Shown piece after piece: positions 1,468-15,162 of a DNA stretch of 15,162 nt. The stretch is from UHGV virus genome UHGV-0253784. One strand, 5' to 3'. Origin of the DNA: a virus. The notes under the pieces are model-generated. The model was not told the origin of the DNA. It was given only the letters and a program-made list of their open reading frames with translations, and ran no database searches. Position numbers and translations under genes: made by a program. How positions within the stretch are numbered: the stretch's first letter is position 1; each line of letters opens with the position of its first letter.

Positions 1468-1708
1468 ATCAATCAGTAAGGCTTTCAAGAAAGTGGTGAA
1501 AAGTACGTTAAGGACAGTGGGTCTTGGCTCTGACGATGCTCCTAAGGTTGTTGAGGCTCAGACCCCAGCAGCACCAGTGGAAGTACCGAACGACAAAGTG
1601 GAGGATGTGGATACTGAAACAACCGCATCTGACGAGAAGAAAGTGAAGCGTTCCGGTAAGCGTAGCCTTCAGGTCTCTCGTACCTCTGGTGGCGGTATTT
1701 CTATATGA
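1460..1708 (+). CDS. gp7.3-like tail/adsorption virion protein (82 aa, GTG start)
   Basis: GTG at 1460 with AAGGAG (1447-1452) 7 nt upstream. N-terminus MGKSISKAFKK and C-terminal SGGGISI resemble T7 gp7.3 (MGKKVKKAVKK ... SGGGINI, from memory). Overlaps gp7 by 8 nt. Confidence 0.75.
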   Translation: MGKSISKAFKKVVKSTLRTVGLGSDDAPKVVEAQTPAAPVEVPNDKVEDVDTETTASDEKKVKRSGKRSLQVSRTSGGGISI

Positions 1709-2121
1709 CCGGGTGCATCGAGTGGAAGTGGGCAAAATCCTCAGCAGGATACGGGCAGAAGCGTATAGACGGTAAGTTAGTGTATATGCACCTACTCGCT
1801 TACGCCGATGCGCATGGGCCAATACCAAACGGAATGCGCGTCCGTCATAAGTGTGATAATCCAGCATGTTTCAACGTAAACCACTTAGAGTTAGGAACTC
1901 AGCGTGATAACATGCAGGACGCCTCAAAGCGTGGTCGCATCAATAAAACCAAAATGGCTAGAGGTGAAGACCAAGGGTTATCGGTTTTAACAGAAGACCT
2001 TGTTCGAGAAATCCGCAAGTCAACTGTAGGTTGTACAACACTGGCTCGTGAGCTAGGCGTTAGCAAGTCTACAGTTTTGCGTGTTCGCCAAGGTAAAACA
2101 TGGAGGCACGTAGATGGCTGA
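1705..2121 (+). CDS. HNH-family homing-endonuclease-like protein (138 aa), at the T7 gene 7.7 position
   Basis: HNH motif HKCDNPACFNVNHLELGTQRDN followed by a helix-turn-helix-like tail. ATGA overlap with the gp7.3 stop and an 8-nt overlap with the portal start. Paralogous to ORF 12614..13063. Confidence 0.85.
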   Translation: MTGCIEWKWAKSSAGYGQKRIDGKLVYMHLLAYADAHGPIPNGMRVRHKCDNPACFNVNHLELGTQRDNMQDASKRGRINKTKMARGEDQGLSVLTEDLVREIRKSTVGCTTLARELGVSKSTVLRVRQGKTWRHVDG

Positions 2122-3682
2122 ACGTGAAGGATTTGCTGCTGAAGGCGCGAAGTCAGTTTATGATAGATTAAAGAACGGACGACAACCATATGAGACGCGC
2201 GCTCAGAACTGTGCTGCTGTCACTATCCCGTCACTGTTTCCTAAGGAGTCCGACAACTCGTCTACGGAATACGTGACGCCGTGGCAAGCTGTAGGTGCTC
2301 GCTGCTTGAACAACTTGGCTGCAAAACTGATGTTGGCGCTATTCCCTCAGTCACCGTGGATGCGACTTACAGTCTCAGAATACGAGGCAAAGACCTTGAG
2401 TCAGGACTCAGAGGCGGCTGCTCGTGTCGACGAAGGGCTGGCTATGGTCGAGCGTGTGTTGATGGCTTACATGGAGACTAACAGTTTCCGCGTCCCATTA
2501 TTCGAGGCGTTGAAGCAGCTTATCGTCTCCGGTAACTGTCTGCTCTACATTCCAGAGCCTGAACAGGGAACTTACAGTCCGATGCGTATGTACCGCTTAA
2601 CGTCCTACGTTGTTCAACGTGATGCTTTCGGTAACATCTTGCAGATTGTGACTCTCGACAAGGTAGCGTTTAGTGCTCTACCGGAAGACGTGAAGTCTCA
2701 ACTCAACGCAGACGACTATGATCCTGACACCGAGTTGGAAGTGTATACGCACATCTACCGTCAGGACGACGAGTATCTACGCTACGAGGAAGTGGAAGGC
2801 ATTGAGGTAACAGGGACCGATGGTTCTTACCCACTGACTGCCTGTCCGTACATCCCGGTACGAATGGTTCGACTGGATGGTGAAGACTATGGTCGTTCTT
2901 ACTGCGAGGAGTATCTTGGAGACCTTAACTCTCTGGAGACGATTACAGAAGCTATCACCAAAATGGCTAAGGTAGCCTCCAAGGTGGTGGGCCTCGTTAA
3001 CCCGAACGGTATCACGCAACCTCGTCGTCTGAACAAGGCGGCTACAGGTGAGTTTGTGGCTGGTCGCGTTGAGGACATCAACTTCCTGCAACTGACGAAA
3101 GGTCAGGACTTTACGATTGCCAAGTCGGTAGCTGATGCTATCGAGCAACGTTTAGGCTGGGCCTTCCTTCTTAATAGTGCTGTTCAGCGTAATGCCGAGC
3201 GAGTCACTGCTGAAGAGATTCGTTATGTTGCTGGCGAACTGGAGGCGACCTTAGGTGGCGTGTACTCAGTACAATCCCAAGAGCTTCAGTTACCTATCGT
3301 CCGTGTGCTGATGAACCAGCTTCAGTCTGCTGGCATGATTCCTGACCTTCCGAAAGAAGCGGTAGAGCCTACGGTCTCCACTGGTCTGGAAGCGTTAGGT
3401 CGTGGTCAAGACTTAGAGAAGCTAACTCAGGCAGTCAACATGATGACCGGGCTACAGCCTCTGCAACAGGACCCAGACATTAACTTGCCGACCCTGAAGC
3501 TGCGACTGCTGAATGCCTTAGGTATTGACACTGCTGGCTTGCTGCTGACCCAGGACGAGAAGTTGCAACGTATGGCTGAACAATCCGCTCAAGGAGCTGT
3601 GGTCAACGGTGCGTCTGCTGCTGGTGCTAACATGGGTGCTGCTGTAGGTCAGGGAGCTGGTGAAGACATGGCTCAAGCCTAA
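2114..3682 (+). CDS. Portal (head-to-tail connector) protein, gp8-like (522 aa)
   Basis: Long blocks match T7 gp8 as I recall it (AKSVYxRLKNxRxPYETRAQNC, DAFGNxLQxVT, RYVAxELExTLGGVYS). Shine-Dalgarno GGAGG 7 nt upstream of the ATG. Confidence 0.95.
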   Translation: MAEREGFAAEGAKSVYDRLKNGRQPYETRAQNCAAVTIPSLFPKESDNSSTEYVTPWQAVGARCLNNLAAKLMLALFPQSPWMRLTVSEYEAKTLSQDSEAAARVDEGLAMVERVLMAYMETNSFRVPLFEALKQLIVSGNCLLYIPEPEQGTYSPMRMYRLTSYVVQRDAFGNILQIVTLDKVAFSALPEDVKSQLNADDYDPDTELEVYTHIYRQDDEYLRYEEVEGIEVTGTDGSYPLTACPYIPVRMVRLDGEDYGRSYCEEYLGDLNSLETITEAITKMAKVASKVVGLVNPNGITQPRRLNKAATGEFVAGRVEDINFLQLTKGQDFTIAKSVADAIEQRLGWAFLLNSAVQRNAERVTAEEIRYVAGELEATLGGVYSVQSQELQLPIVRVLMNQLQSAGMIPDLPKEAVEPTVSTGLEALGRGQDLEKLTQAVNMMTGLQPLQQDPDINLPTLKLRLLNALGIDTAGLLLTQDEKLQRMAEQSAQGAVVNGASAAGANMGAAVGQGAGEDMAQA

Positions 3683-4796: not shown

Positions 4797-5840
4797 ATGG
4801 CAAACGTTCCGGGTCAGAAAATTGGTACAGACCAAGGTAAAGGCAAATCTGGTTCCGACGCTCTGGCGTTGTTCCTGAAGGTCTTTGCTGGCGAAGTCCT
4901 GACCGCATTCACTCGCCGCTCTGTAACTGCTGACAAGCATATTGTCCGTACCATTCAGAACGGCAAGTCTGCTCAGTTCCCTGTCATGGGTCGCACCTCT
5001 GGTGTGTATCTGGCTCCGGGTGAGCGACTGTCAGATAAGCGTAAAGGTATCAAACATACCGAGAAAGTGATTACCATTGATGGTCTGCTGACTGCCGATG
5101 TGATGATTTTCGATATTGAAGACGCGATGAACCACTATGACGTGGCTGGTGAGTATTCCAACCAGCTAGGTGAAGCTCTGGCTATCGCTGCCGATGGTGC
5201 GGTCTTAGCTGAAATGGCTATCCTGTGTAACCTTCCGGCTGCATCCAACGAGAACATTGCTGGTCTAGGCACCGCCTCCGTACTGGAAGTTGGTAAGAAA
5301 GCTGACCTCAACACTCCGGCTAAACTTGGTGAAGCAATCATCGGTCAATTGACCATTGCCCGTGCGAAGCTGACCTCCAACTACGTTCCTGCTGGCGACC
5401 GTTATTTCTACACAACGCCGGACAACTACTCTGCAATCCTCGCGGCTCTGATGCCGAACGCTGCTAACTATGCTGCTCTGATTGACCCAGAGACTGGTAA
5501 CATCCGTAATGTAATGGGCTTCGTGGTTGTTGAAGTTCCACACTTGACTCAGGGCGGTGCTGGTGAAACTCGTGGTGAAGATGGTATCACTATTGCGACT
5601 GGTCAGAAGCACGCCTTCCCAGCTACTGCTGCTGGTGATGTTAAAGTTGCTCTGGACAACGTTGTGGGCCTGTTCTCTCACCGTTCTGCTGTAGGCACTG
5701 TTAAGCTGCGCGATTTGGCGCTGGAACGTGACCGTGACGTCGATGCTCAGGGGGACCTGATTGTTGGTAAGTACGCTATGGGGCACGGCGGTCTGCGTCC
5801 TGAAGCGGCTGGCGCACTGGTTTTCAGCTCAGCGGTGTAA
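4797..5840 (+). CDS. Major capsid protein, gp10A-like (347 aa)
   Basis: Extensive match to T7 gp10A as recalled (GKSAQFPV, HTEKVITIDGLLTADV, DIEDAMNHYDV, ALMPNAANYAALIDPE, HRSAVGTVKLRDLALER, KYAMGHGGLRPEAAG). Confidence 0.95.
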   Translation: MANVPGQKIGTDQGKGKSGSDALALFLKVFAGEVLTAFTRRSVTADKHIVRTIQNGKSAQFPVMGRTSGVYLAPGERLSDKRKGIKHTEKVITIDGLLTADVMIFDIEDAMNHYDVAGEYSNQLGEALAIAADGAVLAEMAILCNLPAASNENIAGLGTASVLEVGKKADLNTPAKLGEAIIGQLTIARAKLTSNYVPAGDRYFYTTPDNYSAILAALMPNAANYAALIDPETGNIRNVMGFVVVEVPHLTQGGAGETRGEDGITIATGQKHAFPATAAGDVKVALDNVVGLFSHRSAVGTVKLRDLALERDRDVDAQGDLIVGKYAMGHGGLRPEAAGALVFSSAV

Positions 5841-5971
5841 GTACATTTAGCCAGCCTAACATCGCTACAGTAGCGGCTGCACCTGAAGAGGAGACTCTAA
5901 CCCCTCAACAGAAAGCTGCGCGTACTCGTGCTGCGAACAGGGCCGCTAAACTGGCTGAGTCCAACAACTAA
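4797..5971 (+). CDS. Minor capsid protein 10B-like, made by a programmed -1 frameshift near the end of 10A
   Basis: G GTT TTC heptamer at 5819-5825, the same slip sequence as T7 gene 10. The -1 frame is open from 5804 to TAA at 5969-5971, giving a 48-aa extension ending ...AAKLAESNN. The terminator starts 6 nt later. Confidence 0.6.
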
Positions 5972-6037: not shown

Positions 6038-6604
6038 ATGGCTCAATACATTCCACTGAATGCTAACGATGACTTAGACGCCATCAACGATATGTTAGCT
6101 GCTATAGGTGAACCAGCAGTCCTACAGCTTGACGAGGGGAACGCTGACGTCTCGAACGCTCAACGTATCCTGCATCGTGTCAATCGTCAGGTCCAAGCTA
6201 AAGGCTGGAACTTTAACATCAACGAAGCTGCTGTCCTGACACCTGATATCCAAGACAATAGGATTCGATTCTTGCCATCATACCTTCGTGTAATGACCGC
6301 TGGGGCCACCAGCTACTACAGCAATATGGGTGGATACCTGTACGACCTATCCACTCAGTCAACCACTTTCACCGACCCTATCACGGTAGAGCTTGTGGAG
6401 ATGAAGCCATTCTCCGAGATGCCTGTGGTCTTCAGGGACTACATCGTCACTAAAGCTAGCCGTGAGTTCAACGCTAAGTTCTTCGGTAGCCCAGAGTCAG
6501 AGCTATACCTTCGTGAGCAGGAAGCAGAACTCTATCAGCAAGTTATGGAATACGAGATGGACACTGGTCGCTACAACATGATGTCTGACATTGGGAGGGA
6601 CTAA
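6038..6604 (+). CDS. Tail tubular protein A, gp11-like (188 aa)
   Basis: Matches T7 gp11 as recalled (AIGEPxV, NAxRIL, GWxFNI, YIVTKASRxFN, MEYEMD). Shine-Dalgarno GAGAGGAGA upstream. Confidence 0.95.
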   Translation: MAQYIPLNANDDLDAINDMLAAIGEPAVLQLDEGNADVSNAQRILHRVNRQVQAKGWNFNINEAAVLTPDIQDNRIRFLPSYLRVMTAGATSYYSNMGGYLYDLSTQSTTFTDPITVELVEMKPFSEMPVVFRDYIVTKASREFNAKFFGSPESELYLREQEAELYQQVMEYEMDTGRYNMMSDIGRD

Positions 6605-6831
6605 TGGCTAGTCACAACCTGAAGATTCACCGCCAGCACTTTGGTCCGGTACAGCTAGGTCTAAAGACAGCAGAGCTGAGACTTAACGACCGGGACTTTA
6701 AGGTTGGCGATTGGCTTATCCTGAATGAGTGGGACAACGGATACACTGGACAACAGGTAGCTCGTAAGGTTGTCCACATTGCTGACGTTGGTGACATCGC
6801 TGAAGGATACGTCCTAATGAGTATGATTTAA
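6604..6831 (+). CDS. Small DUF3850/ASCH-like (PUA-fold) protein (75 aa), inserted between the tail tubular genes
   Basis: TAATG stop-start overlap with gp11 and GGGAGGGA upstream. The pattern HNLKIHxxHFGPVxLGLKTAELRLNDRDFKVGDWLILNEW ... EGYVL fits the DUF3850 signature as I remember it. T7 has no gene here. Confidence 0.7.
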   Translation: MASHNLKIHRQHFGPVQLGLKTAELRLNDRDFKVGDWLILNEWDNGYTGQQVARKVVHIADVGDIAEGYVLMSMI

Positions 6832-10328: not shown

Positions 10329-12611
10329 ATGGCTAGTAATATTGAATCAGCTCTGGCTAATCGGACTATGGGTCGTGGAAGAGCGCCGGGTAAAGCTATC
10401 GCCGTAAACTATCAAGCAGCAAGCGTTCAGGCTCCGACTGGTGACTCCGGTCTAGCTCGTGCGCTAACCAACTTCGTTGAGTCTGGGACAGGATTGTACA
10501 AGCAGTTCAAGGACGAGGAGAAGACCAGAGCTGACGAGAGGTCTAACGAGATTATCCGTAAGCTGACACCTCAGCAAAGACGTGAGGCTATCCAGAACGG
10601 CACATTGCTGTATCAGGACGACCCTTACGCTATGGAAGCGCTTCGAGTCAAGACTGGTCGTAATGCTGCCTTTGCGGTGGATGACGAGATTAACGTTAAG
10701 ATTCAGAACGGTGAGTTCCGCACACGTCAGGACATGGAAGAGTATCGCCACCAGCGACTTCAGGACGCCGCTAAGTCCTATGCTGAAGAGGCAGGTATTA
10801 ACCCTACAGATGAGTTCTTCCAGCGCGGGTTCAACGATAACATCACAGACCGCAACATAGCTATCTATGGGTCTTTCAATAAGTATTTCAGCAAGCAGTC
10901 TGAAGAGACAGCAATGTTGAACACTCGTATTGAAATGAACTCGTTCCTTAACGATGGGGACCTGATGCGCTCGCCTGAGTCTGGAAAGACCTTCATGGCC
11001 TACCTTCGGGATGGACTAACGACTGCTGCTATCCCTTCGGACCAGCGAGCACGAGAGGTCATCACCCAGACGGTACGTGACGCAATCCAGAAGTCAGGAG
11101 GCTCAAACTTCCTACAGCAAGTCCGTGGCGAGCGTATCACCCTTAATGGCGTTGACGCTACCATCGAAGAGATTGTAGGACCTGACGTCTTCAATGCCGC
11201 TATGGTTGAGGCCCAAGGTACTGAGTATAAACTGGTGGCTAAGTATCAGGAAGACTTGGCGTTAGGAGTTCAGTCTGCAATTCTTCAAGATGACCCAACC
11301 ATTGGTCTTGCCCAGATTCAGAAACTCAAGGAGCAGAACAACCTGCTTCAGCCTGGTGAAGAACTAACGCCTCAGCGTCAGATGCTCATTAATGCCGAAG
11401 CCAGCTTACTGGAAGCGGTAAAGCGTAAGTCTGCTGAACAGGCGAAGGAGAACAAGAAGTTAATCCAGACCCAGAACAAGCAACTGGTCATAGACCAAGT
11501 GTATCAGCGACGTCTGGCTGGGGACAACGTGTCCACCAACTATGAGGACCTTCCGGTCTCATACGCTACAGGCGAGTTCAAACGTTCGGACATGAACAAC
11601 TATGCGGCTGCCAAGCTGCAGCAGATTGACCAGATGGACATCCCTGAGGCTGCTAAAGATGCTCAGAAGGTTGCACTGTTAAGAGCTGACACTAACAACG
11701 GTCCGTTCCGTAATGCCTTCCAGACTCTTACTCAGGATGCTGCTGGTGAGTGGCAGGCTGCGGTCATCCGTGGACAGTACGACACAGACAAGATGCAACG
11801 CTTCGAGTCTCTTCGTCGTGCCTACACTCAGGACCCTTCAAGTTTTGCTGCTCTGTATCCTGACCAAGCTCAGTTGTTCTCTACGTTCGACCAGATGGAC
11901 AAGATGGGTCTGGACCCTCAGACGATGATTGAAGCTGATAAGCAAGCTGCAAGTCAAAGCCGTGAGATGCGCATGGAGTCAGACAAGGCGTGGCAGGAGT
12001 TGAAGAACGACTCTAAGAACACCCAGCTGTCTCGCCTCCCAACGTCTCTGGACTCAAGTGCTCGTAAGGTCTGGGACTCATGGTACTATCGTACAGGTAA
12101 CGCTGACGCTGCAACTCAGCAGACTCAACGCTGGCTGAATGAGAACACCGTAACGTTCCAGTCTGAAGGTTCTGACGGTAAGTCAATCGGCATGGTGTCG
12201 AAGCACCAGCTTATGGTCGGGGATAACCCAGAGTCGTGGCAGGTGGGTCGAGACATTATAGACACCGCTCGTCAGCAGCTCATTAAGGCCAACCCTTGGG
12301 TAGTGAACTCTCAGTTGTCCGTTGTTGAACAGAACGGCTCTATCTTCCTCCAAGACGCTACGGGGACTATTCGTATTCGATACGATAAAGAACTTGTAGG
12401 TAAACTCTACCGCGAACAACAGCAGAAGGCACAAGATGCCGCATATGCTCAGGCAGAACGTGATGCTAACAAGCGCGCGCGTATCGTCGGGACTAAAGCT
12501 GCTGGTGACAAACGTCGAGCTGACCGAGAGGCCAACATCGAGAAGCGCGGTGGGATGTACAATGACGTCTCACTGGAGGGTATCGCAAACGTACTAATCG
12601 GTAAGGAGTAA
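10329..12611 (+). CDS. Internal virion protein C, gp15-like (760 aa)
   Basis: Strong match to T7 gp15 as recalled (IESAL, ADERSNEIIRKLTPxQRREA, NGTLLYQDDPYAMEALRVKTGRNAA, EEYRH). GAGGAGGA upstream. Confidence 0.95.
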   Translation: MASNIESALANRTMGRGRAPGKAIAVNYQAASVQAPTGDSGLARALTNFVESGTGLYKQFKDEEKTRADERSNEIIRKLTPQQRREAIQNGTLLYQDDPYAMEALRVKTGRNAAFAVDDEINVKIQNGEFRTRQDMEEYRHQRLQDAAKSYAEEAGINPTDEFFQRGFNDNITDRNIAIYGSFNKYFSKQSEETAMLNTRIEMNSFLNDGDLMRSPESGKTFMAYLRDGLTTAAIPSDQRAREVITQTVRDAIQKSGGSNFLQQVRGERITLNGVDATIEEIVGPDVFNAAMVEAQGTEYKLVAKYQEDLALGVQSAILQDDPTIGLAQIQKLKEQNNLLQPGEELTPQRQMLINAEASLLEAVKRKSAEQAKENKKLIQTQNKQLVIDQVYQRRLAGDNVSTNYEDLPVSYATGEFKRSDMNNYAAAKLQQIDQMDIPEAAKDAQKVALLRADTNNGPFRNAFQTLTQDAAGEWQAAVIRGQYDTDKMQRFESLRRAYTQDPSSFAALYPDQAQLFSTFDQMDKMGLDPQTMIEADKQAASQSREMRMESDKAWQELKNDSKNTQLSRLPTSLDSSARKVWDSWYYRTGNADAATQQTQRWLNENTVTFQSEGSDGKSIGMVSKHQLMVGDNPESWQVGRDIIDTARQQLIKANPWVVNSQLSVVEQNGSIFLQDATGTIRIRYDKELVGKLYREQQQKAQDAAYAQAERDANKRARIVGTKAAGDKRRADREANIEKRGGMYNDVSLEGIANVLIGKE

Positions 12612-12613
12612 AC

Positions 12614-13063
12614 ATGAAGAACGGGACAGCCAGTGAGAGACTGGCAGAACTGTCAGTAGCTGAAGAGTCTGGCTGTATCCGATTCACAGGCCACTTAGAC
12701 GGAGAAGGATACGGAAGGATAATGGTAGCTAGGGTTAAGTATATGGCACATCGTCTCTCCTACTCCCTAAATAATGGGCCAATACCAGATGGTTATGTTG
12801 TTAGGCATAAATGTGATAACCCATCATGCATAAATCCTGAACACCTTGAAGTAGGAACGCAGGCTGACAACATTGCAGATAAGGTTTCCAGAGGCCGACA
12901 GGCAAGAGGTAGTGGAGTAGGCAGAGCTATACTGACAGAGGAATCTGTTAGAGAAATACGCTCCAGCCCATTAAAAGTATCTGAGCTTTCCACCTTATAC
13001 GGGGTAAGCGTCGTTTCCATACGAAATATATTAAGGAGAAAGACATGGCAACACGTGGTGTAA
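12614..13063 (+). CDS. HNH-family homing-endonuclease-like protein (149 aa), inserted between genes 15 and 16
   Basis: HNH motif HKCDNPSCINPEHLEVGTQADN and a helix-turn-helix-like tail; paralogue of ORF 1705..2121. Visibly enriched in AGA, AGG and ATA codons compared with the neighbouring structural genes. Overlaps the gp16 start by 19 nt. Confidence 0.85.
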   Translation: MKNGTASERLAELSVAEESGCIRFTGHLDGEGYGRIMVARVKYMAHRLSYSLNNGPIPDGYVVRHKCDNPSCINPEHLEVGTQADNIADKVSRGRQARGSGVGRAILTEESVREIRSSPLKVSELSTLYGVSVVSIRNILRRKTWQHVV

Positions 13064-15162
13064 GGAATGCAAATCCGGGCAATATCCGTAAGTCCAAAGA
13101 CCAGTGGGAAGGTGCTATAGGCGATGATGGTGCATTCGTTATCTTCGACAGTCCTGAATCTGGGGTCCGAGCATTAGCGAAAAACCTTCAAAGCTACGGT
13201 CGCCAAGGTTATGACTCTATCGAGAAGATTATCAACCGATGGGCACCTCCTAACGAGAACGACACTAAGTCCTACATCGACTCGGTGGTGGCTGCGACTG
13301 GCATCCCTGCTACCCAGAGTCTAGACCTCTCTGACCCGGACACCCTGTCTTCTCTGGCACAAGCTATCAGCTTCCATGAGACAGGCTCCCGGTACGACCC
13401 TGAAGTCTACCAACAGGGAGTCGCAAGAGCACTCAACGGTATCAGCCCAAAGACTCCACCAGTAAGCGCTAACGTATTTGACGCACTCACGGAAGGACTC
13501 AAGTCTAAACCTAAAGTAGCTCTTGGTGAGAACCTTCCGACCGCTGCTGGTCTGAACATTGAGGGTCAAGCACCTGAAGCTCCTAACGAATCGTTCGGTG
13601 AGATGTTCTATAAGGCTACTGGAGAGACCATGCAGGAGCGAGAGGATCGCTCTACGTGGTTCGGTTTCGGTTCTGCTGCAGAAGCTGAAGTGAAGAACTC
13701 TATGGTCGGCGTGGCTATCCGAGCTGGCCAGACTGAGGACTCACTGGATGTCATTGGCGATGTGTTCAACCCAACCCGATGGAACAACCATAAGTGGTCT
13801 CGTGAGGAGCTTGACCAGATTCGTAACGCTGGGGTTCTGCCTCAGTATTACGGAGTCATTACTGGTGGCTCCCCTCAGAACCTGACCGAGCTTATTAACT
13901 TGGCGCTTGAGAACCAGAAGTTGGACCAAGAGAAGGCCAAGGCTGGGACTGGCGCTCAACTGGCGGCTGGTGTGATTGGTGCTGGCGTGGACCCTCTGAC
14001 TTACGTTCCTATTGCTGGGCAGGTAGGTAAAGGTGGGAAGCTAGTCAACAAGATGTTCACTGTGGCTGCTCAGTCTGGTGCTCTGGCTGGGGCATCAGAG
14101 ATTGCTCGAACCTCAGTTGCTGGTGGGGACGCTCATGTGGCTGAGGCAATTATGGGCGGTGCTCTCTTCGGCGGGGGAATGACAGCTATCGGGGACGCTA
14201 TCGGTAAGGCCTTAGGCAAGTCAACCAACGAGTTCGCTGGGCCAGCCACACGTCTGGAAGCCCGTGAGACTGCACGTAATGTTGATGGTCATGATCTGTC
14301 GCGTATGCCAATCCGTGAAGGAGAGGAGACCTTTAGTCACCAAGGCGTTAAGTTCGCTGACGTGCCGAATGAGCCGGGTAGTGTACGATTAGAAGATGGT
14401 TCAATCCTGATTGGTGAGAACCCTCTGAACCCTAAGACACGTAAAGTCTTTGACGAAGTGATTGAGCCTGAACGTGCCGCTGCTGGTGTGAACCTTGGTG
14501 GGCTGACTGAGATTGGCCTGAAGCTGCTTCGGTCCGAGAACCCTGAGATTCGTGGAGTCGCTGCTGACTTAGTGCGTTCACCAACTGGTATGCAGTCCGG
14601 TGCCTCAGGTAAAATCGGGACCACTGCGTCAGACGTATTCGAGAGACTTCGTGCTGTGGACCATCGGTTCTACAACGACATCGACGATGCGGTTACTGAG
14701 GCACTCAAGGATCCGTACTTCCAGACAGCATTCTGGCGAGACTCTGGCGCATTCCGTCAGGACATCTACCAGCGTGTGTCTATGGCTATCGAAGATGGTA
14801 GTGGGAACCTGAAGGCTGAACTGACTCCGGGAGAACTGAAAGTCTATGACCTACTGAAGAACCAGTTCGACGCCAAGCGTGAGATGATGGAGAACCCAGC
14901 GATGTTTGGTCGTCCAGACGCTCAGTCTATCTTTCCGGGTAGCCGCTTCAAGGGAACCTACGTCCCGCATGTGTATAGCAAACAGATGAAGGAGCTGTAC
15001 ATCAAGGAGCTTGGAAGTCCAGAGGCACTACAGGAGGCCATCAAGAAGTCATGGTTGACCAGCTATGCGTCTCGACATGAGGTCAAGAAACGTGTGGACG
15101 AGGCACTATTAGAGGCTGACCCTACGTTGACTCCAGAAGGACTTGCGGCTGCGGTCGATAAG
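13045..15162 (+). CDS. Internal virion protein D, gp16-like, 3' truncated by the window edge (706 codons present)
   Basis: ATG 13045 with AAGGAG 6 nt upstream. Frame open to the last base of the window. From about residue 200 it matches T7 gp16 as recalled (STWFGF, PTRWN, GAGVDPLTYVP, RLEARETARN, LVRSPTGMQSGASGK, ENPAMFG, KGTYVPHVY). The N-terminal ~120 aa do not resemble the T7 gp16 transglycosylase module. Confidence 0.9.
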   Translation, partial: MATRGVRNANPGNIRKSKDQWEGAIGDDGAFVIFDSPESGVRALAKNLQSYGRQGYDSIEKIINRWAPPNENDTKSYIDSVVAATGIPATQSLDLSDPDTLSSLAQAISFHETGSRYDPEVYQQGVARALNGISPKTPPVSANVFDALTEGLKSKPKVALGENLPTAAGLNIEGQAPEAPNESFGEMFYKATGETMQEREDRSTWFGFGSAAEAEVKNSMVGVAIRAGQTEDSLDVIGDVFNPTRWNNHKWSREELDQIRNAGVLPQYYGVITGGSPQNLTELINLALENQKLDQEKAKAGTGAQLAAGVIGAGVDPLTYVPIAGQVGKGGKLVNKMFTVAAQSGALAGASEIARTSVAGGDAHVAEAIMGGALFGGGMTAIGDAIGKALGKSTNEFAGPATRLEARETARNVDGHDLSRMPIREGEETFSHQGVKFADVPNEPGSVRLEDGSILIGENPLNPKTRKVFDEVIEPERAAAGVNLGGLTEIGLKLLRSENPEIRGVAADLVRSPTGMQSGASGKIGTTASDVFERLRAVDHRFYNDIDDAVTEALKDPYFQTAFWRDSGAFRQDIYQRVSMAIEDGSGNLKAELTPGELKVYDLLKNQFDAKREMMENPAMFGRPDAQSIFPGSRFKGTYVPHVYSKQMKELYIKELGSPEALQEAIKKSWLTSYASRHEVKKRVDEALLEADPTLTPEGLAAAVDK

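Follow-up and report, generated by a model that had tools for sequence, protein, structure and literature searches.

The analysed window, a stretch of 15,162 nucleotides from the viral genome UHGV-0253784, represents the structural module of a Kayfunavirus (K1F-like) phage. Two genes of the HNH type, both on the plus strand, have been identified in it: HNH_A (1705..2121; 138 aa), located between gp7.3 and the portal gene (gp8; 2114..3682, plus strand), which is the position of T7 gene 7.7, and HNH_B (12614..13063; 149 aa), located between gp15 and gp16; the ORF coordinates are exact. On both sides of the inserts the conserved reading frames (gp7.3 and portal, gp15 and gp16) are intact, and the Shine-Dalgarno (SD) spacing before the portal gene and gp16 is canonical. 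Rfam had no match in the window; the homing endonuclease genes (HEGs) are therefore associated neither with a group I intron nor with any other such element.

The two HNH proteins are identical at 60 of 136 residues (BLASTP; 44%, E 1e-37) and align colinearly from the N-terminal cysteine to the last residues, through the common blocks GPIP, RHKCDNPxCxNxxHLExGTQxDN, LTEExVREIR and KTWxHV. Their homology is far beyond chance. At the DNA level, the identity is 51% over 131 aligned codons; the same codon is used at only 29 of the 60 identical residues, and the longest exact run common to both genes, in the GPIP region (1814/12774), amounts to 14 nt. A previous sequence-only reading of the window, according to which the two ORFs are homologous up to their C-termini while their DNA has diverged, is thereby confirmed; similarity limited to the HNH core, which would have spoken against it, is not what the colinear alignment displays.

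Both proteins carry the HNH_3 domain (PF13392; 53.6 bits for HNH_A and 55.0 bits for HNH_B, at a cut-off of 24.8), with the conserved catalytic His/Asn and the zinc-binding Cys/His residues. In HNH_A this His-Me finger nuclease core comprises residues 26-71 (1780..1917, plus strand). HNH_A matches phrog_59 (E 6e-35, residues 2-136), HNH_B matches phrog_59/6254, and 1609 phage records contain a relative. Across 82 homologues, both window proteins included, residues C4, H48, C50, C55, H60, N69 and D72 (HNH_A numbering) are invariant. The AF2 model of HNH_A (pLDDT 93) contains helices at residues 97-105, 110-117 and 121-128, a predicted three-helix helix-turn-helix (HTH) DNA-binding domain (residues 97-128; 1993..2088, plus strand) which has weak Pfam HTH matches and aligns to the C-terminal HTH of I-HmuI. 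A profile search against PDB sequences gave marginal matches (DBP48 HTH, E 0.006; I-HmuI, E 0.033), and a fold search was therefore needed for the comparison with I-HmuI. In Foldseek, run with the HNH_A model only, the top PDB match was I-HmuI (probability 0.99 over 142 columns), followed by I-PpoI, in agreement with the beta-beta-alpha-metal fold of the His-Me finger nucleases. I-HmuI (PDB 1U3E), encoded by an intron of phage SPO1, has the same order of HNH nuclease, linker and C-terminal HTH. Unlike HNH_A, it is intron-encoded and 174 aa long, with only 20% identity and a TM-score of 0.45, and the likeness in fold does not establish a common subfamily.

Full-length homology to T7 gp7.7 has been found for both proteins: 45.9% identity for HNH_A (residues 4-136, E 3e-30) and 48% for HNH_B. 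The location of T7 gene 7.7 (7.3|8, with the 3' end abutting gene 8) is that of HNH_A and not of HNH_B (15|16). The orthologue of HNH_B in phage CR44b is annotated as "7.7C predicted homing endonuclease", with an HTH, where "7.7C" denotes homology only. Among the papers searched, none reports a nuclease activity, a target site or homing for T7 gp7.7, nor cleavage of the HEG-less allele or super-Mendelian inheritance for its relatives, an absence that is in itself no proof. Both ORFs are very probably free-standing genes for homing endonucleases of the HNH + HTH type, which belong to the T7 gp7.7 family and resemble I-HmuI in fold, and nuclease activity and homing may be presumed for them.

At the 5' end of HNH_A, the start codon (1705-1707) overlaps the gp7.3 stop TGA (1706-1708) in an ATGA arrangement (1705..1708, plus strand). 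The SD scan detected no recognisable SD upstream of this ATG, which points to weak, coupled translation; in CR44b-like genomes the start codon is TTG. HNH_A is thus probably made at a low level, through ATGA coupling to gp7.3. At the 3' end, the C-terminal motif K-T-W-R-H-V (2095..2112, plus strand) contains the codons TGG (2101-2103) and AGG (2104-2106), which form a GGAGG (2102..2106, plus strand) separated by a 7-nt spacer from the portal ATG at 2114. With its last codons and its stop (2119..2121), HNH_A extends into the first 8 nt of the portal gene, ATGGCTGA. The annotated gp8 start of K1F lies at the same ATGGCTGAACGT; there, with site A empty, the portal gene is preceded by TAA-GGAGG-6 nt-ATG. 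The 3' end of the cassette would have replaced this native junction, with TGG AGG supplying the GGAGG for the portal gene. The three HNH alleles found at site A have pairwise identities of only 38-49%, and TGGAGG + 7 nt is preserved in every one of them. An exact-pattern search of IMG/VR for the K1F-type empty junction found none, and the portal 5' flank exhibits no clear HEG-linked divergence spike in a comparison with only two empty-site sequences (K1F and L090).

T7 gene 7.7 and its T3-like counterparts occupy the same position as HNH_A and possess the same HNH + HTH organization with a KTWRH[IV] ending. T7 gp7.7 ends with RKTWRHI and the stop, where GGAG lies in TGG AGA and a TAATG overlap joins gene 8; in the T3-like phage VAC1 the gene 8 SD is located in TGG AGG, the same Trp-Arg codons as in HNH_A. 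In contrast to T7 gene 7.7, HNH_A is two codons longer (Asp-Gly), overlaps the portal gene by ATGGCTGA (8 nt) instead of TAATG, and the ATG within its Thr/Trp codons has gone out of the portal reading frame. HNH_B differs from T7 gene 7.7 in the junction and in the signal provided for the gene downstream, which is the embedded ATG and not a Trp-Arg SD.

At site B, the last gp15 codons contain AAGGAG (12603..12608, plus strand), which is the native gp16 SD in empty-site phages (K1F and 10 other empty sites at gp15/gp16 read GGTAAGGAGTAACATAATGGCG) and here precedes the HNH_B ATG with a 5-nt spacer. In phage ST20, the HEG ATG stands exactly at the old gp16 ATG position. The former gp16 SD at the end of gp15 would have passed to the HEG start. 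The HNH_B motif K-T-W-Q-H-V (13040..13057, plus strand) contains the gp16 start codon (13045..13047) within its ACA (13043-13045) and TGG (13046-13048) codons. The HNH_B stop is located at 13061..13063, and the resulting 19-nt overlap (13045..13063, plus strand) is dual-coding: the first six codons of gp16 (M A T R G V) correspond to (T)W Q H V V stop of HNH_B in the other frame. Just upstream of KTW lies a feature absent from the earlier reading, an AAGGAG (13033..13038, plus strand) for gp16 formed by TTA AGG AGA (Leu-Arg-Arg) of HNH_B, 6 nt before the ATG; in the proposed course of events, the AGG AGA pair would have provided this as a new SD. The pair is kept in all occupied site-B alleles, the diverged GA2A/TM1 allele included, and both allele groups keep AGG AGA together with the ATG.

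The homologous gp16 bases in empty-site phages are ATGGCGACTCGTGGTATTCGC. Occupied genomes all differ from empty ones at gp16 nt 9, 18, 19 and 21, whereby the histidine of the motif is restored and a TAA is created in the HNH frame. Between the groups (8 occupied and 10 empty genomes, with fixed differences between them), the divergence of gp16 amounts to 32-34% over nt 1-60 and 24-27% over nt 61-150, whereas the last 300 nt of gp15 are only 3-6% different; the empty-site group is nearly invariant. Site B thus displays the HEG-linked flank divergence of a homing gene, with the diverged tract (13045..13194, plus strand) as a candidate for the target of HNH_B or for its tract of immunity or co-conversion. 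The HNH_B target would fall within the first ~150 nt of gp16, which is a concrete, testable guess. As a side observation, the empty-site gp16 N-terminus (MATRG) reads W-R-L-V in the HNH frame, be it an excised-HEG footprint, a microhomology-guided insertion or a coincidence.

The overlaps of both HNH ORFs with the next essential gene, the portal SD within the Trp-Arg codons at site A and the gp16 ATG within the Thr/Trp codons at site B had been described before, and all are read directly from the DNA. Of the 15 window genes preceded by another gene, 7 have their SD inside the ORF of that gene; such embedding is routine in the window, so the phenomenon itself is not unusual. The arrangement is real but ordinary, and is already visible at the phage T7 gene 7.7/8 junction. 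Comparison with empty-site relatives indicates that each insertion displaced or took over a native signal, and hence that the insert must supply a replacement: each cassette sits where the ribosome-binding site of the downstream gene was and would have to rebuild its translation signals. From the canonical spacing and the comparative data, we infer that the embedded SD and ATG signals are used.

The previously noted idea of one C-terminal motif put to two different uses stands as regards the geometry, but the motif is generic to the family and did not evolve at the two sites. Its K, T, W and H are invariant in 7 T7-group sequences, and in an unbiased protein search W was found in 69 and H in 49 of 82 homologues. 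Conservation was re-estimated by that search because the first family survey, partly seeded with KTW[RQ]H[VI], was biased toward motif conservation; the context survey was redone with HNH-core seeds only. Judging by the homologues compared, KTW[RK]H[VI]-stop is the normal C-terminus of the gp7.7 family, whatever adjoins it downstream.

In the family codon survey, the Trp is followed by an AG-initial codon where 10-16 nt separate the Trp codon from the start of the next gene. The counts use one state per cluster, a stricter version than earlier counts, which let a single cluster give several states and were inflated; the clusters are not phylogenetically independent. The association between an AG-initial codon and tight coupling was pronounced in the discovery set (2 x 2 table 8, 2; 2, 22; p=1e-4) and not significant in an underpowered independent sample (2, 4; 1, 15; p=0.17), where TGG AAR (Lys), with no canonical SD, precedes several of the tightly coupled starts. 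Restricted to Arg codons and with both sets combined, AGR was found in 8/8 tightly coupled and CGN in 13/14 uncoupled clusters (8, 0; 1, 13; p=3e-5). These counts suggest a new detail, significant in the discovery set, the replication being underpowered: the Arg of the motif tends to be AGR if the next gene is tightly coupled, and otherwise CGN.

It is tentatively proposed that the conserved C-terminus of the gp7.7 family may act as a portable translation-initiation adaptor, in which AAR ACA TGG AGR CAY offers GGAG and ATG in a fixed register. A cassette landing on an essential start would restore translation in either of two registers, and the choice of AGR or CGN would track the use of the SD. 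At 15|16, the last five codons and the stop would derive from the gp16 5' end, with linked silent or conservative gp16 changes restoring the motif His and creating the stop. With the start signals of the essential gene inside the HEG, only precise excision would be tolerated.

The main alternative regards both embedded signals, SD and ATG, as passive consequences of a conserved motif that happens to be spelled AAR ACA TGG AGR; these bases would not be selected as signals, and the downstream genes would be translated anyway, e.g. by termination-reinitiation. The occurrence of the motif across the family irrespective of the downstream gene agrees with it; the 8- and 19-nt overlaps could support coupling, and in the independent sample the motif often provides no canonical SD for the coupled genes. 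Several observations make this explanation unlikely: the partition of AGR and CGN codons between coupled and uncoupled clusters, the scarcity of AGR in HNH_A, where only 2 of 13 Arg codons are of this type, the SD-forming AGG among them, and the retention of TGGAGG + 7 nt by the three divergent site-A alleles. Furthermore, the empty sites carry a strong SD at the same distance, which indicates that the portal and gp16 genes normally use one.

Both HNH genes are sporadically present at fixed intergenic sites, as is characteristic of homing genes. HNH_A has been found in 6/220 and HNH_B in 17/215 related records; about 97% of these close and viable relatives lack the former and about 92% the latter. 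The empty sites are clean in other relatives, different HNH alleles occupy the same two sites in some, and family members are located at many unrelated genome positions. By this comparison of genomes, HNH_A and HNH_B are optional mobile elements, a point not recognised in the earlier reading.

The DNA packaged by T7-like phages is drawn from concatemers that have direct terminal repeats and not from HK97-type cos sites. This difference in packaging mode bears on a second explanation, in which the HNH proteins are not selfish but domesticated helpers of virion assembly or packaging, comparable to HK97 gp74 with terminase and portal. The position of HNH_A directly upstream of the portal gene would fit such a role, which was also raised by the authors of Hafnia phage Ca for a terminase-adjacent homologue, where plaque size differed with and without the HEG (PMC8861465). 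A conserved, required partner of terminase and portal is not expected to be missing from most close relatives, and a packaging cofactor of the HK97 gp74 type has been rejected on this ground; the HNH + HTH architecture shared with I-HmuI and the scattered genome positions of the family also make a helper role very improbable.

As to their origin, the closest relatives of HNH_A and of HNH_B occur in other phages: HNH_A shares 71% identity with a gene of Pectobacterium phage PPWS4, each gene has orthologues 86-98% identical at the same site elsewhere, and most relatives carry neither gene or only one. The base compositions also differ, with a GC3 of 0.45 for HNH_A and 0.39 for HNH_B (the lowest in the window) and an AGR share among Arg codons of 15% and 67% (10/15), respectively; that of HNH_B is foreign. 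True paralogy by duplication within the phage lineage, each copy then adapting to its junction, as the term "paralogous" in the sequence-only reading would imply, is suggested by one family and one architecture in one genome but has been rejected as scarcely credible, since HNH_A and HNH_B (44%) are no closer to each other than to T7 gp7.7 (46% and 48%) and differ in composition and phage distribution; of that term, only the homology stands. Not being each other's closest relatives, HNH_A and HNH_B appear to stem from separate invasions, each by a member of a single mobile family, in which optional selfish cassettes would have entered 7.3|8 and 15|16 of a K1F-like phage independently.

The closest parallel within the genus is Hafnia phage Ca, a Kayfunavirus with a 397-bp HNH HEG indel between a lysis gene and the large terminase gene, a third insertion site outside the window. 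This HEG belongs to the same family, its product best matches a CR44b homing endonuclease, and a single phage stock contains both the occupied and the empty state. It overlaps both neighbours, the start lying over the upstream stop and the downstream ATG before the HEG stop (PMC8861465). Among T7-like Citrobacter phages, HEGs account for the main differences in gene content (PMC4925675).

The seg/mob genes of T-even phages ("intronless homing") are likewise optional, inserted in intergenic junctions in the same orientation and devoid of their own promoter; they also contain signals of the downstream essential gene, with a co-converted or diverged flank (PMC2988022). In T4, the promoters of essential genes located downstream lie within free-standing HEGs and favour the retention of these HEGs (PMC2988022). 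There are differences between the two systems: the signals documented in T4 are promoters (the gene 32 promoters in segG), whereas those described here are translational (SD and start codon), and the window genes encode predicted HNH_3 + HTH nucleases unrelated to the GIY-YIG Seg proteins. The adaptor reading, if true, would represent at the level of translation what embedded promoters do for the retention of the T4 seg genes.

The current understanding of homing endonucleases and of T7-like genomes is unchanged by these results. Their relevance lies mainly in annotation and phage engineering, both genes being dispensable selfish cassettes. The embedding of essential signals would make simple loss of a cassette costly: deletion of the ORF would remove the portal ribosome-binding site, or the gp16 site and start context, and would probably be lethal, and clean HEG removal needs a rebuilt junction of the K1F empty type. 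For the family, the codon pattern may serve as a small example of a mobile gene limiting the cost of landing beside an essential gene.

The 15.2-kb window comes from a K1F-like phage (genus Kayfunavirus, Autographiviridae), of which it is the structural module; 173 phage records match at least 80% of it, at about 93-95% identity. The top match and closest full-length relative, "Enterococcus phage EFA-1" (GenBank MT350292.1, 94.1%, flagged UNVERIFIED_ORG), is a Kayfunavirus 94% identical to the window, and its "Enterococcus" host label is therefore probably wrong. The genes follow the T7 order: 6.5-like, 7.3, portal (8), scaffold (9), capsid (10), tail tube A and B (11, 12) and 13-16. The capsid gene ends with a T7-type slippery GGTTTTC (5819-5825, plus strand), past which a -1-frame ORF of about 50 codons (5826-5971, plus strand) runs on; the layout resembles the T7 10A/10B frameshift, by which a minor capsid protein is made.

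Two HNH genes lie within this order exactly where the sequence-only reading had placed them: HNH_A upstream of the portal gene (1705..2121, 138 aa) and HNH_B between gp15 and gp16 (12614..13063, 149 aa). BLASTP aligns their products with 60/136 identities (44%, E 1e-37), colinearly through GPIP, the HNH core, LTEExVREIR and the terminal KTWxHV, so that the similarity is not limited to the generic HNH motif; the DNA has diverged, as claimed, to 51% identity with a longest exact common run of 14 nt. The resemblance exceeds chance and had been correctly observed. Both proteins match Pfam HNH_3 well over threshold and phrog_59 "HNH endonuclease" across their full length, and an 82-sequence alignment drawn from an unbiased protein search shows no variation at their catalytic and zinc-binding residues. 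Relatives of HNH_A are present in 1609 phage records; T7 gp7.7, encoded by the HNH gene between T7 genes 7.3 and 8, is 46% identical over residues 4-136. Orthologues 86-98% identical to the window genes are already labelled HNH or homing endonucleases in GenBank, that of HNH_B in CR44b as "7.7C predicted homing endonuclease". AlphaFold models HNH_A with confidence (mean pLDDT 93), as a nuclease domain, a linker, a three-helix helix-turn-helix (residues 97-128) and a GKTWRHV tail. Its best PDB fold match is I-HmuI, the HNH homing endonuclease of SPO1, with both domains aligned (probability 0.99, TM 0.45), followed by I-PpoI for the nuclease core; the sequence profile by itself reaches I-HmuI marginally (E 0.033).

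Scored with 400-nt flanks, HNH_A is found in 6/220 and HNH_B in 17/215 related records; the empty site is clean in most relatives, and in a few another HNH allele occupies the position. Three alleles occur at the portal site (mutually 38-49% identical) and two allele groups at the gp16 site (57-58%). The genes had been called paralogous: their homology stands, but duplication within this genome does not, since the identity between them (44%) is below that of either to T7 gp7.7 (46% for HNH_A, 48% for HNH_B) and their composition differs, which argues for separately arrived homologues. They are not each other's closest relatives, the gene of Pectobacterium phage PPWS4 being 71% identical to HNH_A. 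GC3 of HNH_B (0.39) is the lowest in the window (other genes 0.43-0.57), and AGR accounts for 10/15 of its Arg codons, compared with 2/13 in HNH_A, 5/54 in flanking gp15 and 3/37 in gp16, a composition that fits a gene recently acquired from a more AT-rich source. Judged from the sequences, both genes appear to be optional, mobile homing-endonuclease cassettes. The CR44b annotation and the literature agree with such a sporadic mobile element: T7-like Citrobacter phages differ in gene content mainly by their homing-endonuclease genes (HEGs) (PMC4925675), and within one stock of the Kayfunavirus Hafnia phage Ca a 397-bp indel at a third site consists of a homologous HEG that overlaps both neighbouring genes (PMC8861465).

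Several further observations concern these cassettes. The ST31 allele at the portal site, 66% identical to T3-like 7.7, shares its last 32 nt and first 7 nt with HNH_A, the proteins being only 44% identical; the GA2A/TM1 allele has most of its first ~25 residues and an RR-x-TWQHV end in common with HNH_B, at 57-58% identity overall. Near-identical ends on diverged bodies suggest that cassettes were exchanged through these conserved termini, or that the termini are under strong selection. Contig IMGVR_UViG_2700988881_000001 carries at least three family members, at 7.3|8, 15|16 and ~11.9-12.3 kb, and PMC8861465 cites a further homing endonuclease of CR44b, next to the terminase gene; repeated invasion of one small genome by this family thus seems common. 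Separately, a 75-aa DUF3850/ASCH-domain ORF (6604-6831, plus strand) between genes 11 and 12 overlaps the gp11 stop by 1 nt with its ATG and has its Shine-Dalgarno (SD) sequence GGAGG inside gp11. Present in 159/210 related records and missing from some, it may be another optional insert.

In K1F, where the portal site is empty, gp7.3 ends TCT ATT TAA; GGAGG comes next, 6 nt ahead of the portal ATG. In the window the cassette stands in place of this 15-nt spacer. The HNH_A ATG overlaps the gp7.3 stop (ATGA; TTG in CR44b-like genomes), and an SD scan of the window found none for HNH_A at this start. Its 3' end supplies GGAGG again: as proposed earlier, TGG AGG (2101-2106) of KTWR forms GGAGG (2102..2106). 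A 7-nt spacer separates this from the portal ATG (2114), and the HNH_A stop (2119..2121) falls inside the portal gene. No divergence spike is evident in the flanks of occupied versus empty sites here, with two empty-site sequences compared. T7 gene 7.7 ends AAG ACA TGG AGA CAC ATT TAA TG (K T W R H I stop); its Trp-Arg codons contain GGAG, and after a further 9 nt comes the gene 8 ATG, which overlaps the 7.7 stop. A T3-like phage has TGG AGG CAT ATC TAATG; the portal-site arrangement is thus that of the T7 7.7/8 junction. T7 and T3-like phages also have an ATG inside the Thr/Trp codons (ACA|TGG in T7), in frame with the annotated gene 8 start and 15 nt upstream of it; a portal begun there would be five residues (M E T H L) longer.

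At the gp16 site, the ATG (13045..13047) straddles the HNH_B codons ACA|TGG, as had been noted, and the HNH_B stop follows at 13061..13063. The gp16 SD, not mentioned earlier, is AAGGAG (13033..13038) in the Leu-Arg-Arg codons of HNH_B directly upstream, with a 6-nt spacer. Both geometries are present, but the C-terminal motif is not peculiar to these sites. In the unbiased sample the motif carries Trp in 69/82, His in 49/82 and Val/Ile/Leu in 63/82 proteins, its variable residue is Arg in 25 and Lys in 25, and 44/69 proteins end 3-4 residues past the Trp. The KTW motif is the ordinary C-terminus of the family, and the two "ways" of using it are two registers of one conserved 3' end.

Empty gp16 sites (K1F and ten other loci) read GGT AAG GAG TAA CATA ATG GCG ACT CGT GGT, which places the native gp16 SD within the last gp15 codons. 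When the site is occupied, the HEG ATG takes over this SD (in ST20 exactly at the former gp16 ATG position), and the HEG 3' end gives AGG AGA AAG AC ahead of the gp16 ATG. Codons 1-6 of gp16 are, in the other frame, the last of HNH_B (W Q H V V stop). All occupied differ from all empty genomes at gp16 nt 9 (ACT to ACA; synonymous in gp16, Leu to His in the HNH frame) and at nt 18, 19 and 21 (ATT CGC to RTA AGR), which create the TAA stop of the HNH gene, leave Arg unchanged and turn Ile into Val in the main allele group. Across the last 300 nt of gp15, occupied and empty genomes diverge by 3-6% on average; the figure jumps to 32-34% for gp16 nt 1-60 and is 24-27% for nt 61-150, then falls towards background; among empty-site genomes this gp16 tract is nearly invariant. 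Such one-sidedness would be expected if HNH_B targets the gp16 5' end of empty genomes and the occupied allele is resistant and co-converted, as established for T4 free-standing HEGs (PMC2988022). The diverged tract is a candidate HNH_B target.

An SD embedded in the upstream ORF is the norm in the window (7/15 genes having an upstream neighbour). Codon choice was surveyed in 160 family loci from IMG/VR, with proteins clustered at 60% identity, one state per cluster, and a cluster counted as coupled if the next gene starts 10-16 nt past its Trp codon. Of the first-set clusters, 8/10 coupled versus 2/24 uncoupled ones follow Trp with an AG-initial codon (AGG/AGA for Arg, AGC/AGT for Ser) and so contain TGGAG (p=1e-4). 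An independent set, gathered with HNH-core patterns only, shows the same direction without significance (2/6 versus 1/16, p=0.17), and at several of its coupled starts the preceding codons are TGG AAR (Lys), with no canonical SD. For Arg only, both sets pooled, coupled clusters have AGR 8 and CGN 0, uncoupled ones AGR 1 and CGN 13 (p=3e-5). The genes after coupled cases are unrelated (portals of ~500 aa; ORFs of 81, 101, 330 and 445 aa). The pattern has good support within the KTWRH[VI] subfamily, the clusters being phylogenetically non-independent, and is unproven outside it.

From these sequences, the embedded portal and gp16 start signals are almost certainly used, and the sequence-only reading was partly right. 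The portal-side arrangement already exists in T7 and the orthologues are already annotated; the HNH pair belongs to a known class of element and behaves as such elements do. The additions are modest: the pattern in codon choice, the 19-nt overlap coding in two frames, with the gp16 changes linked to it, and the candidate HNH_B target tract.
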